A stretch of 64,000 nt of DNA from Acidobacteriota bacterium. Lineage in GTDB: Bacteria > Acidobacteriota > UBA6911. Of the stretch, positions 1,287-4,043 are shown piece after piece. The stretch is from contig JAFGIY010000199.1 in NCBI GenBank assembly GCA_016929335.1, positions 927-64,926 on the forward strand, read 5' to 3'. A program made the position numbers and the translations under genes. The notes below the pieces were generated by a model, which was given only the letters and a program-made list of their open reading frames with translations, was not told where the DNA came from and ran no database searches. Each line of letters opens with the position of its first letter. Positions within the stretch are counted from its first letter, which is position 1.

Positions 1287-1650
1287 GATGCCCTCCTGCA
1301 GCATTAGTTTGCTACCTGCCGGCCGGAAGTAACATAAAAAAATTAGAAAATTTCCGCGAAAGAAATGCACCGCAGGATTCGTGAATGATTACTGATCTGG
1401 TGCCGTTGCATTTGAAAACGAGGGTAGCCCGGCACTGTATTTGAGGGAAGCTTAAATTCCTGTTTTTCCTGCCGGATTTCGAGGTAAAATCTCCGGTTCA
1501 CCGTGTGGAATCATTTGAATCGTCAGTAGTCTGGATCGGAACCCGCATTGAATGCGGCCATCGGGCAATTAAGGCGACGAATTCGTAATAACTCAGCTAG
1601 TGATGTATGGATGGTTAAATTATCCACTGAAATTTATGAGGGAATGAGGA

Positions 1651-3252
1651 ATGGCTAAGAAGACTGCGTCCGAGAAAACAACCCTGACTGGTGCTTCCAT
1701 TAATCCATTGCCAGGCAATGTGCCCTACCGAACCGTTTCACTTTGCCCGGAGTGCGCGGCAAAGCTGGATGCCGAGGTGTTGGAAAAAGACGGCAAGATC
1801 GTCATGGAGAAGACTTGCCCAGAGCATGGTTTCTTTAAAGAGGTTCTCCTGTCGGACGCCTACTATTTCCATCGCATGATGGCATGGAACCGCGATGTCG
1901 GTTGTGGAGTTATCAATCCTGCCATCCCGGATGCCACATTATGTCCGGATCATTGCGGATTATGCAACCTGCATGTCAGTCACCCTGTGCTGGCCAATAT
2001 TGATCTTACCAATCGGTGTAACCTGTCCTGCCCGATCTGTTTCGCCAACGCGAATGTGCAGGACTACATTTACGAGCCGTCCTATGAGCAGGTTGTGCAG
2101 ATGCTCCAGACTCTTCGAGATTCCCGCCCTGTCGCCGGCCGCGTCATACAGTTCGCCGGCGGAGAACCCACATTGCATCCTGACTGGTACCGGATCCTTA
2201 CAAAGGCCGGAGAGATGGGATTTTCTCATGTGCAGTGCGCCACCAACGGTCTCAAGTTTGCCGAGGATTCTTTTGCAGAAAAGTCCAGGGAAGCCGGACT
2301 TCATACTCTTTACCTGCAATTCGATGGTGTCGATCCGGGATTGTACGAGAAAATCCGCGGCCGCAAGGATCTTCTGGATGTCAAGATGAAGGCCATTGAA
2401 AACATCCGGAAGGCCGGCCTCAAGATCGTCTACGTCCCGACCATTGTGGGAGGCCTCAACGACGATCAGGTCCCGAAGATAGTTCAGTTCGCCCTCGACA
2501 CAATCGATGTATGCTCCGGCATCAGCTTCCAGCCCGTAGCCATTACCGGACGAATCGACGACGCTGAGCGCGAAAAGATGCGCTTCACGCTGTCCGACCT
2601 GGCGAATGGCGTCAATAAGCTGGGTTATACGTCAAAGGAGGACTGGTTCCCGCTGTCATGCACGACGCCGATCACCGAGCTTATTCAAGCCTTAAGGAAC
2701 GAACCCAATGTCATGGTTTCCTGCCACCCGCTGTGCGGCATCGGGACTTATTTCTTCGTAGACAAGAACCGGAAGCCGACGCCGGTTACGCGTTTCCTCA
2801 ACATCATGGGATTGTTCGACGATATCCAGAAACAGGCGGACAAGCTCAAAAACAAAACCACCTTCAAGTCTTTATATAACAACCTCAGCAAGTTCAGCCT
2901 GTTCAGCAGCGCCAACAAGCATTTCGACGAAAGCAAGGCGCCTGAAGGTTTAACTTTGACAAAACTTGGACAGACCATCGAGGGACTGCTTGACAAAAAG
3001 GCCGGTCGCGGCACGAACGATGGCACCTATACCTATAAAACCCTCATGGTAGCCGGCATGCATTTCATGGATGGCTACAATTACGATGTGGAACGCGTCA
3101 AGCGGTGTGTTATTCACTATTCTGCGCCTGACGGACGCCTCTACCCATTCTGTGCCTACAACTCGGGTCTTGTTTTCCGCGAAAAGATCGAGAAGCAATT
3201 CTCCTGCTCGAAAGCGGAATATCGCAGGAAACAGGCAGTCAATCTGCAGTAG
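1651..3252 (+). CDS. Radical SAM protein, class D / MJ0619 (Tes, GDGT-MAS)-like
   Basis: 533 aa. It has the CNLSCPICF (CxxxCxxC) radical SAM cluster motif and GGEPTL, an N-terminal Cys knuckle (SLCPECAAKL...KTCPEHG), and further conserved Cys residues downstream. A GAGGAATGAGGA tract precedes the ATG. Confidence 0.85.
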   Translation: MAKKTASEKTTLTGASINPLPGNVPYRTVSLCPECAAKLDAEVLEKDGKIVMEKTCPEHGFFKEVLLSDAYYFHRMMAWNRDVGCGVINPAIPDATLCPDHCGLCNLHVSHPVLANIDLTNRCNLSCPICFANANVQDYIYEPSYEQVVQMLQTLRDSRPVAGRVIQFAGGEPTLHPDWYRILTKAGEMGFSHVQCATNGLKFAEDSFAEKSREAGLHTLYLQFDGVDPGLYEKIRGRKDLLDVKMKAIENIRKAGLKIVYVPTIVGGLNDDQVPKIVQFALDTIDVCSGISFQPVAITGRIDDAEREKMRFTLSDLANGVNKLGYTSKEDWFPLSCTTPITELIQALRNEPNVMVSCHPLCGIGTYFFVDKNRKPTPVTRFLNIMGLFDDIQKQADKLKNKTTFKSLYNNLSKFSLFSSANKHFDESKAPEGLTLTKLGQTIEGLLDKKAGRGTNDGTYTYKTLMVAGMHFMDGYNYDVERVKRCVIHYSAPDGRLYPFCAYNSGLVFREKIEKQFSCSKAEYRRKQAVNLQ

Positions 3253-3372: not shown

Positions 3373-3885
3373 CTAGAGTTGGCCGCAATCGGCAACCAGG
3401 ACTTTGGCTTTCGGCGCGCCTGATTCGGTTCCGAAGCTTTCCATTTTCGTCACTACATCCATACCCTCGACGACGGATCCGAATACAACGTGTCTTCCGT
3501 CAAGCCAGGACGTTTTTACGGTGCATAAGAAGAACTGAGATCCATTGGTGTTGGGACCGGCGTTAGCCATACTGATGATCCCAGGGCCGGTATGCTTAAG
3601 CGAGAAATTCTCGTCAGCAAATTTCTCTCCGTAAATCGACTTGCCGCCGGTGCCATTGTGGCGGGTAAAATCGCCGCCCTGACACATGAAGTTGGGAATA
3701 ATCCGATGGAATGAAGAGCCTTTATAGCCGAAGCCTTTTTCGCCCGTACACAGAGCGCGAAAATTTTCCGCCGTTTTGGGAACGACGTCCGAGCGCAACT
3801 CAACAACGATGCGGCCAAGCGGTTTGTCATCGGCAGTGATATCCAGGAAACACCGTGGAAGTTTAGGACTGTCGGCTATGCTCAT
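3373..3885 (-). CDS. ppi: Peptidyl-prolyl cis-trans isomerase, cyclophilin type (CypA-like)
   Basis: ORF 3373..4008. The preferred start is the ATG at 3885 ([13 protein letters not shown]...) with GGAG upstream. Long runs match the cyclophilin A family: [86 protein letters not shown] and a terminal ADCGQL. Confidence 0.95.
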
Positions 3886-4043
3886 TATTTTTTCTCCGGA
3901 AACGAAAAAAGCGATTAAAGGCGGAGCCAACTCTCCATGAGTCAGCACAGGAGTATTGTCAAACATGCATCGGCGGTTCAGCAACTTTCCTGGGTGGGAA
4001 TACTGCATCCATCCGCTGAGGCACGTGTTGGAGTCTAACGGAA

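Follow-up and report, generated by a model that had tools for sequence, protein, structure and literature searches.

Tail-coupling radical SAM enzymes in archaea and bacteria

In archaea, two membrane-lipid tails are joined to give a single membrane-spanning molecule by tetraether synthase (Tes), also named GDGT-MAS. The enzyme of Methanocaldococcus jannaschii is MJ0619 (7TOL, 7TOM), and the archaeal homologues MA_1486 and Maeo_0574 have also been expressed. MJ0619 has four domains and carries a Cys3His iron, a Cys3His N-terminal [4Fe-4S] cluster, a radical SAM CX3CX2C motif and a Cys3Met C-terminal [4Fe-4S] cluster, and the archaeal active site binds E. coli diacyl phospholipids (PMC9433317). 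As for bacteria, Zeng et al. 2022 listed 456 Tes homologues. The initial annotation of the locus described here cautioned that bacterial homologues are proposed and not proven, in agreement with the literature up to 2025-2026, which holds no assay of a bacterial Tes homologue (PMC11868695; June 2026 preprint).

Among the bacterial proteins, the Tes of 'Candidatus Solibacter usitatus' Ellin6076, which makes brGDGTs, was compared by description; it likewise has about 40% identity to archaeal Tes and the same proposed role, the coupling of iso-branched tails. S. usitatus is reported to have two Tes homologues together with PlsAR homologues, and likewise the genome studied here encodes a further Tes-like paralogue besides a gene of the PlsA/Ger type. 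The two differ in that S. usitatus is a cultured brGDGT producer, whereas our Tes comes from an uncultured lineage.

Two further families should be kept apart from Tes. Mss of Thermotoga maritima and Thermoanaerobacter ethanolicus is also a radical SAM enzyme that has been proposed or shown to join fatty-acid tails into diabolic and iso-diabolic acids, and it is the partner of Ger in the proposed brGDGT pathway, but published reports set it apart as a different family. For instance, Sahonero-Canavesi et al. 2022 found Tes homologues to be absent from the hosts of Mss, and mss to be absent from Acidobacteria. Work in E. coli has demonstrated the function of Mss, while bacterial Tes is a candidate by its sequence. 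TrsS (NF045646), for its part, is a sister family of Tes, with which it has in common the zinc ribbon, the N-terminal cluster motif and the radical SAM core.

An intact tes gene in an uncultured acidobacterium

We analysed a stretch of 64,000 nucleotides (the window) from contig JAFGIY010000199.1 of an Acidobacteriota bacterium, in which one open reading frame was annotated as a radical SAM protein. Its features are as follows, in window coordinates.

1638..1642, + strand: GAGGG, likely ribosome-binding site, 8 nt 5' of the ATG (sequence reading)
1651..3252, + strand: tes coding sequence, 533 aa plus stop, ATG start (open reading frame list and translation)
1681..1725, + strand: bacteria-specific N-terminal extension, residues 11-25, T11-x2-G14-x2-I17-x-P19 ... 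P25 (alignment; pLDDT ~91)
1726..1848, + strand: rubredoxin-like zinc-ribbon domain, residues 26-66 (PF23545 Zn_ribbon_HMPTM, 4.3e-17)
1942..1974, + strand: N-terminal auxiliary [4Fe-4S] motif C98-X3-C102-X2-C105-X2-H108, aligning with MJ0619 C73, C77, C80 and H83
2005..2493, + strand: radical SAM core, residues 119-281 (PF04055 Radical_SAM, 1.4e-25)
2017..2040, + strand: CX3CX2C motif C123/C127/C130, within the radical SAM core
2734..3153, + strand: C-terminal auxiliary-cluster and lipid-pocket domain with C362, Met470, C486, Tyr490 and C501, aligning with MJ0619 C338, Met439, C455, Tyr459 and C470

The 533-residue frame and the motifs first noticed in it are all present in the translation (CPEC at residues 32-35, CPEHG at 56-60 and CNLSCPICF at 123-131). 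Because of the two Pfam matches and a dN/dS of 0.03-0.07 against 13 relatives of 82-91% identity, a chance reading frame is ruled out for 1651..3252. The gene is intact and native, with a GC content (52.4%) close to that of the genome (52.3%), and purifying selection on it is strong. Its relatives at 82-91% identity are all Acidobacteriota MAGs, as one would expect from the acidobacterial origin first suggested for this DNA. Samples that yielded relatives of the lineage came from a sulfidic spring, peat, groundwater and an anaerobic reactor.

The gene stands alone in the window, and the Ger-like gene of the same genome sits on another contig. A consensus scan around tes revealed no convincing sigma-70 promoter or terminator, with nothing above the shuffled expectation. 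None of the seven genes flanking tes recurs beside it in the relatives of 82-91% identity, and clustering of the flanking open reading frames of 19 tes loci uncovered local synteny within sub-clades only, none of it lipid-related. Since the flanking genes are neither conserved nor lipid-related, we rejected an operon for this tes clade.

Family assignment

The NCBIfam equivalog model of Tes (NF045702), for which membership is defined as a whole-protein score above 450 bits over the full model, gave 553.3 bits and matched positions 2-484 of its 486, and in a whole-genome profile scan tes was the sole locus above this cut-off. Among solved structures, the top match was MJ0619 GDGT-MAS (7TOL; E 1e-123, residues 19-528, 39% identity), an end-to-end match that bears out the MJ0619-type layout named in the initial annotation. 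In addition, an NCBI protein at least 90% identical to ours already carries the name Tes. In a phylogenetic tree, the protein falls within a well-supported acidobacterial clade, and the archaeal Tes sequences form a well-supported clade of their own (SH-aLRT 99) that excludes bacterial Tes.

We also considered whether another radical SAM subfamily would provide a better match, which would have spoken against the first reading, and found none: Tes alone scored above its cut-off, while TrsS, MoaA, NirJ, PqqE and the SPASM maturases all remained far under theirs. The TrsS model, with a membership threshold of 490 bits and members that often have Sec in a GU motif, reached 315.1 bits. Apart from TrsS, the competing models match only the radical SAM core; for instance, the SPASM/twitch maturases (PqqE, NirJ, SkfB and others) scored 36-67 bits against cut-offs of 265-725, over residues ~109-311 only. 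By sequence, the 533-residue protein is a bacterial Tes-family radical SAM enzyme, and the gene is an ordinary further member of the catalogued bacterial Tes homologues.

These scores also bear on the idea of a non-lipid substrate, in which the protein would be a pterin methyltransferase, as in the old annotation of MJ0619, or a maturase of cofactors or peptides resembling TrsS or the SPASM enzymes. The JGI name for members of the cluster is still '7,8-dihydro-6-hydroxymethylpterin dimethyltransferase', and TrsS, a sister family with a different role, occurs in the same genome. Nevertheless, the structure and assays of MJ0619 overturned the pterin annotation (PMC9433317), the true TrsS of the genome is a separate gene (contig C25, 457 aa, with an in-frame TGA) that scores 561.2 bits when the TGA is read as Sec, and the SPASM and other families are confined to the core, whereas the predicted model has the full four-domain Tes fold. 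We thus regard a non-lipid substrate as very improbable.

Metal sites and predicted fold

The resemblance to MJ0619 extends to the metal sites. The initial annotation expected three 4Fe-4S clusters plus a mononuclear Cys4 site. The ligands for the 4Fe-4S clusters are present, but the mononuclear site is Cys3His, as in MJ0619: C32-X2-C35-X20-C56-X2-H59 has the spacing of MJ0619 C9X2C12X20C33X2H36, and its four residues are invariant in 63 sequences. C98, C102, C105 and H108 of the N-terminal cluster are all invariant in alignment A1. The long C-terminal region was said to contain extra conserved Cys residues, and C362, C486 and C501 are indeed conserved; these cysteines and Met470 are invariant in the 63 sequences, and the tyrosine is found in 60 of them. 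Altogether, the alignment covers all four metal sites and has metal ligands conserved at 14 of 14 positions, plus Tyr490, so the auxiliary-cluster cysteines, whose absence would have undermined the assignment, are all there.

Outside the metal sites, our protein keeps Tyr459 of MJ0619, its loop arginine R275 (R301 here) and three of the four listed 5'-dAH contacts, F106, R210 and Q268 (F131, R236 and Q294 here). Other residues have been replaced: S271 by Ala (A297; Ala in 27 of the 63 homologues), H337 by Leu, C438 by Gly and C456 by Val. Furthermore, MJ0619 lacks the N-terminal extension of about 15 residues (T-x2-G-x2-I-x-P) found in bacterial Tes. Among 26 bacterial sequences, its threonine and P25 occur in all, the glycine and isoleucine in 25 each and P19 in 23; in archaeal Tes (n=13), the T11, G14 and I17 columns are gapped in every sequence and the P19 column in 11, while column 25 is occupied, but by residues other than proline.

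An AlphaFold2 model of the protein (pLDDT 89.3, pTM 0.90) superposes on 7TOL in Foldseek with TM-scores of 0.86/0.93 and an rmsd of 2.6 Å over 507 columns, and the next fold match, MoaA, is limited to the core (TM 0.34). The protein is thus predicted to adopt the four-domain fold of 7TOL.

Probable lipid substrate and ether-lipid genes

No gene of the PcrB/GGGPS family was found in the genome, which is scored as 100% complete, and the native substrate is therefore probably a bacterial lipid and not archaeol. An alternative would be that Tes acts on archaeal-type isoprenoid diethers, its own or taken up from archaea, to yield isoprenoid GDGT. It is true that, by score, the equivalog model of the archaeal enzyme accepts the protein and that MJ0619 shows no specificity in its headgroup pocket (PMC9433317). 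However, unlike the archaeal host of MJ0619, the host here is a bacterium without GGGPS, so that home-made archaeol is impossible as a substrate. Moreover, no bacterium is known as a GDGT maker (PMC8941075), and the position of bacterial Tes outside the archaeal clade, with an N-terminal motif of its own, also argues against this route. We rejected it as the main reading, and we consider its likelihood to be close to negligible.

The genome has one Ger/PlsA-like ether-lipid gene, composed of two BcrAD_BadFG (activase) domains and DUF2229, an architecture kept in all alkyl-ether producers (PMC13159169). It is on contig C74, where a partner of 552 aa lies upstream of it. At 25% identity to the type that is linked to tes elsewhere, it is a divergent paralogue. 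In 301 Acidobacteriota genomes, DUF2229 was present in 29 of 44 Tes-positive and 36 of 257 Tes-negative genomes (odds ratio 11.9, Fisher p 3e-12, with kinship ignored); within one family (f28), 13 of 14 genomes have Tes but not DUF2229. In other Tes clades, from three phyla, tes directly adjoins a Ger-like gene: Vicinamibacterales-like Acidobacteriota, Phycisphaerales and one Chlamydiota MAG. The tes-linked Ger type is split, with a two-activase plus DUF2229 protein accompanied by a partner of ~430-550 aa. For this partner, Pfam and NCBIfam gave no match above threshold and the PDB no relative, the one trace being a weak match to a DUF2229 fragment (E about 1e-3).

Other candidates for ether-lipid synthesis in the genome were discarded. 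An ElbD-type pathway was rejected, as there are short generic NAD_binding_4 matches and no multidomain ElbD-like open reading frame. Seven HGD-D family matches, in open frames of 387-468 aa of which six form three adjacent pairs, look like ordinary components of 2-hydroxyacyl-CoA dehydratase or benzoyl-CoA reductase and were not retained as PlsA. The genome also contains one haem-copper oxidase family gene, and a strictly anaerobic lifestyle therefore cannot be claimed.

A long-form paralogue

A second Tes-like protein, longer than Tes, is encoded on contig C253. With 298 bits it falls short of the Tes cut-off. It has retained the rubredoxin and radical SAM sites, the site of the C-terminal cluster, and the methionine and tyrosine, but has lost the N-terminal cluster ligands. 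Related long forms, at 48-70% identity, are found in 18 further genomes. The long form has an lpxD-like gene beside it, but this arrangement is present in only 1 of 18 genomes, and we therefore judged the lpxD-like gene a chance neighbour and rejected it as a link to lipids. Among the 301 Acidobacteriota genomes, at least 136 have only sub-cut-off Tes-like matches (~320-345 bits), many of these genomes being closed and without DUF2229, so that genes of the long-form type are far more widespread than true Tes.

The long-form paralogue could be the real membrane-spanning lipid synthase, with the Tes of the window serving a different or accessory lipid role. Its retained sites, its conservation and its distribution would be in line with this; in particular, the iso-diabolic acid found almost universally in cultured Acidobacteria fits the long form better than true Tes, a stringent match to which occurs in 3 of 14 iso-diabolic-acid-producing Acidobacteria and is missing from most (PMC13159169). 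Nevertheless, the score below the cut-off and the loss of the N-terminal cluster ligands weigh on the other side, the long form is a sequence-based candidate on the same footing as Tes, and the two enzymes might each couple the tails of a different substrate. We consider it unlikely that the long form takes the place of Tes in this way.

Proposed function of Tes

The function that we favour for Tes is the tail-to-tail C-C coupling of lipids into membrane-spanning products of the iso-diabolic-acid or brGDGT type, and we believe it to be the probable one. Its chemistry, its substrate and its product are what we infer from the comparison with known systems, and the same holds for the link to brGDGTs and iso-diabolic acid. 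On the model of MJ0619, the radical SAM cluster (C123/C127/C130) would cleave SAM to a 5'-deoxyadenosyl radical, which would strip a membrane-lipid tail, lying in a hydrophobic tunnel, of a hydrogen at its terminal carbon. The resulting substrate radical may then be stored at the C-terminal [4Fe-4S] cluster, bound to one of its sulfurs (ligands C362/C486/C501 and the labile Met470), until a second tail is activated by a second SAM, whereupon the two sp3 carbons would be linked; electrons would be relayed by the rubredoxin-like iron together with the N-terminal cluster. The substrate would be a bacterial glycerolipid, probably iso-branched and possibly ether-linked through the Ger/PlsA-like enzyme of the genome, and the product a lipid that spans the membrane, either of the iso-diabolic-acid or of the branched-GDGT type.

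Several observations count against this function: tes has no conserved lipid neighbour, the Ger-like gene of the genome is divergent and unlinked, family f28 largely has Tes without DUF2229, and few of the iso-diabolic-acid producers have Tes. In a variant of this reading, the chemistry is the same and the product is not a tetraether, being instead chiefly an intramolecular macrocyclic lipid, an iso-diabolic-acid tetraester with ester-bound tails, or another long-chain lipid. MJ0619 and expressed Tes homologues yield macrocyclic archaeol besides GDGT, and MA_1114 gave traces of macrocycle only (PMC8941075; PMC9433317), which, along with the state of the Ger-like gene and the lack of an ElbD-like gene in the genome, would suit such a product. 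On the other hand, Tes and Ger-like genes co-occur, and adjoin one another in other lineages, and S. usitatus, with a comparable Tes, makes true brGDGTs; no sequence feature separates intermolecular from intramolecular coupling. On balance, a product other than a tetraether seems to us a minor possibility, and we retain the coupling of tails into membrane-spanning lipids as the preferred function.

Implications for branched GDGTs

Few proxies for palaeotemperature and pH on land are used as much as branched GDGTs, and to our knowledge, no enzyme has been proven to join their two alkyl chains. Anoxic lake waters that are almost without Acidobacteria have been reported to contain high concentrations of brGDGTs. 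Bacterial Tes is the leading candidate for chain joining in Acidobacteria, and the gene described here is a further intact candidate, belonging to a lineage of anoxic habitats. Given that better-placed candidates exist in the cultured S. usitatus, this gene alone does not advance the brGDGT question. Nevertheless, some side results may guide the choice of constructs, namely the pairing of tes with a split Ger in three phyla, the long form without one iron-sulfur cluster and the bacterial N-terminal motif.

A broader and more speculative scheme, which we put forward tentatively and hold to be somewhat doubtful as a whole, is that uncultured Acidobacteriota, probably of low-oxygen habitats, might use true Tes and a split Ger/PlsA-type reductase to make ether-linked, membrane-spanning lipids of the brGDGT type, with an operon of tes, Ger and its partner as the core cassette, while the long form would produce the ester-bound iso-diabolic acid of aerobic Acidobacteria. 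If this were true, these lineages of Acidobacteriota would be unrecognised anaerobic sources of branched GDGTs.

Assignment of the window gene to the Tes family

The initial annotation had proposed that the gene, tes, encodes a Tes/GDGT-MAS-like radical SAM enzyme with a rubredoxin-like knuckle, a radical SAM motif and a long C-terminal region with further cysteines. In the translation, CPEC occupies residues 32-35, CPEHG 56-60 and CNLSCPICF 123-131, and the long C-terminal half carries the additional cysteines; with the ORF, the motifs and matching Pfam domains all found, that description was accurate. The MJ0619 paper and a 2026 review supplied the ligand positions, which were transferred through a 63-sequence alignment.

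Features of tes and its product (+ strand)
1651-3252: tes coding sequence, 533 aa, ATG start (ORF finder)
8 nt upstream of the ATG: GAGGG motif (read from the sequence)
Residues 26-66: MJ0619-type zinc ribbon (Pfam PF23545, 4.3e-17)
Residues 119-281: Radical_SAM domain (Pfam, 1.4e-25)
C32, C35, C56, H59: rubredoxin-like iron site, CX2CX20CX2H spacing as in MJ0619 (alignment)
C98, C102, C105, H108: [4Fe-4S]N site (alignment with MJ0619)
C123, C127, C130: radical SAM cluster (alignment with MJ0619)
C362, C486, C501 and labile Met470: [4Fe-4S]C site (alignment with MJ0619)

The protein scored 553.3 bits against the NCBIfam Tes equivalog NF045702 (cut-off 450), covering model positions 2-484 of 486, whereas it reached 315 bits for the sister family TrsS (cut-off 490), and MoaA, NirJ, PqqE and SPASM maturases matched the radical SAM core alone at 36-72 bits. 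Its best PDB sequence match was the archaeal GDGT-MAS MJ0619 (7TOL/7TOM; E 1.1e-123, residues 19-528), followed by SkfB (9e-13). Thus, with NF045702 above its cut-off, MJ0619 on top and TrsS and the others below their cut-offs, the protein belongs to the Tes/GDGT-MAS subfamily and to no other radical SAM subfamily.

All the auxiliary-cluster ligands are present, so that neither a best match in another subfamily nor a missing cluster ligand speaks against the Tes reading. The ligands of a mononuclear iron site are likewise present, as Cys3His rather than the expected Cys4. The conserved Tyr of the family is Tyr490, and the counterparts of the MJ0619 contacts to 5′-dAH (F131, R236 and Q294) are retained together with the loop arginine R301, whereas Ser271 of MJ0619 is replaced by Ala. 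A 39-sequence alignment yielded an AlphaFold2 model (mean pLDDT 89.3, pTM 0.90) whose top Foldseek matches in the PDB were 7TOL and 7TOM (E 7.5e-54; TM 0.86 by query and 0.93 by target; rmsd 2.6 A across 507 columns at 39% identity), the next-best fold being MoaA, in the core region only (TM 0.34). Family score, metal ligands and predicted fold thus uphold both the original observation and its interpretation, and the window gene is an intact Tes family member in an uncultured Acidobacterium. A genome-wide search found three related loci, of which only this one exceeds the Tes cut-off.

Origin and neighborhood

Relatives at 82-91% identity are without exception Acidobacteriota MAGs (from UBA6911, Zodletone spring, SPRUCE peat, groundwater and anaerobic reactor samples). 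Identity is around 50% in Vicinamibacterales and other Acidobacteriota, 42-50% in Deltaproteobacteria, Planctomycetota and Elusimicrobiota, and 36-42% in archaea. The maximum-likelihood tree places the protein within a 20-member acidobacterial clade (SH-aLRT 100) and archaeal Tes, including MJ0619, in a single clade (SH-aLRT 99), with the bacterial backbone lacking resolution. Against 13 close relatives, dN/dS is 0.03-0.07, values that are approximate because dS is near saturation, and GC content is 52.4% in tes and 52.3% genome-wide; the gene is native to this genome and maintained.

An N-terminal extension, T11-x2-G14-x2-I17-x-P19...P25 (1681-1725 in the window), is common to the 26 bacterial Tes sequences, which come from six phyla, with motif positions kept in 23-26 of the 26; none of the 13 archaeal sequences has a residue in the T11, G14 and I17 columns. 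AlphaFold2 predicts the extension, with high confidence, to form packed strands.

In the window, tes is a stand-alone gene with the following immediate neighbors:

699-1370, - strand: 223-aa ORF, no Pfam family, upstream of and divergent from tes, with a C-terminal zinc-ribbon-like pair (CPRC...CFSC)
3373-4008, - strand: cyclophilin-type PPIase, just downstream (Pfam PF00160, 1.3e-48)

Further downstream lie genes for a VWA protein, EF-P and CorA, and, probably, glucose-6-phosphate isomerase and an RpoD-type sigma factor, as judged from their sequences. Even among the closest relatives, none of these neighbors is found next to tes again, and across 19 loci of the clade no lipid gene recurred there.

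Paralogues in the genome

The other two related loci lie on separate contigs:

C253:22963-24912, - strand: long-form Tes-like paralogue, 649 aa, 298 bits, under the Tes and TrsS cut-offs (L003:1315-3264)
C25:25766-27139, + strand: TrsS radical SAM selenoprotein gene with one in-frame TGA (PSGUEASHC; L002:1480-2853)

With the TGA read as selenocysteine, the C25 copy scores 561 bits for TrsS (cut-off 490), and on that reading it is a bona fide TrsS. An AMP-binding (CoA-ligase-like) gene follows it.

Only sub-cut-off Tes-like matches, of about 320-345 bits, occur in at least 136 of 301 Acidobacteriota genomes, and the long form is the common Tes-like protein of Acidobacteria. The C253 copy and 18 others (48-70% identical to it) all lack the [4Fe-4S]N ligands, with Cys77 to His and Cys80 to Ser invariant, and all 19 keep the remaining three metal sites, the Met and the Tyr. 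The long form may represent a separate subfamily, not described so far, that competes with true Tes as a candidate for making iso-diabolic acid. Sahonero-Canavesi et al. (PMC13159169) reported stringent Tes matches in 3 of 14 iso-diabolic-acid-producing Acidobacteria, with no mss among them. An lpxD-like gene beside the long form was considered as a lipid link and rejected as a chance neighbor, as it adjoins in 1 of 18 genomes. In one acidobacterial genus, a true Tes and a long form lie about 6 kb apart or less (G147:C18:54170-63411 and G239:C14:18441-25464).

Association of Tes with ether-lipid genes

Of 301 evenly sampled Acidobacteriota genomes, 44 carried Tes above the cut-off and 65 carried DUF2229, the domain that, with two BcrAD_BadFG domains, makes up the Ger/PlsA-like BBD protein. 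Both were present in 29, DUF2229 alone in 36, Tes alone in 15 (13 from a single family, f28) and neither in 221 (odds ratio 11.9, Fisher p 3e-12, without correction for phylogeny). Each of the 14 Tes-bearing families had at least one genome with both. The BBD core is conserved in every alkyl-ether-producing bacterium according to Sahonero-Canavesi et al. (PMC13159169), and a 2026 preprint names it "ger architecture 2".

Two genera of the family to which the window belongs carry, immediately after tes, a BBD gene (proteins of about 1030-1120 aa when tes-linked) and then a 432-485-aa partner ORF. L032, L034 and L036 (Acidobacteriota and Vicinamibacterales) have the trio as well, as do two Phycisphaerales MAGs and one Chlamydiota MAG, while the 3.4-kb contig of L033 stops within the BBD gene that follows tes.

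L030:7935-14087: tes with adjoining BBD cassette; also in L032, L033, L034, L036, L052, L053 and L037

The partner matches no family over threshold, only a weak DUF2229 fragment, which fits a split-off version of the Ger C-terminal part. We found no description of this physical linkage in the literature that reports Tes-Ger co-occurrence. Tes matches, elsewhere about 1600 nt, span 2144 nt in the Chlamydiota MAG (L037:8001-10144) and 1754 nt in an Acidobacteriota MAG (L074:4610-6363), which suggests an insertion or frameshift; NCBIfam holds an intein-containing Tes model (NF045703).

The window's genome, scored 100% complete with 6.3% contamination, yielded no PcrB/GGGPS gene and no ElbD-like gene. 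It does hold a BBD system on another contig:

C74:24005-29439 (L090:4006-9440), range including the upstream ORF: 1119-aa BBD protein (two BcrAD_BadFG and DUF2229), the genome's sole DUF2229 gene
C74, directly upstream: 552-aa ORF without a family, 19% identical to the tes-linked partner (E 1e-13)

The two may form a split, divergent Ger/PlsA system. However, this BBD gene is just 25% identical to the tes-linked type, and the cassette tes genes only 52-53% identical to the window's. Thus, the association supports a lipid role for bacterial Tes generally, and for the window gene by extension only.

Function and significance

Zeng et al. (2022; PMC8941075) listed 456 bacterial Tes homologues, some of them from Acidobacteria and Proteobacteria, and suggested that they act in brGDGT synthesis. 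S. usitatus, whose Tes homologue is 40% identical to MA_1486, contains brGDGTs according to Chen et al. and Halamka et al., and papers of 2025 (PMC11868695) and 2026 still describe bacterial Tes as lacking experimental validation. The exact window protein is in NCBI nr; within its 90% cluster, one entry already bears the name "tetraether lipid synthase Tes", and others an obsolete pterin methyltransferase name from JGI.

The window gene is thus a further member of an already catalogued family. Its function is probably to join the tails of two bacterial lipids by radical chemistry, giving a membrane-spanning lipid, and the product may be a brGDGT, a macrocycle or an iso-diabolic lipid in ester linkage.
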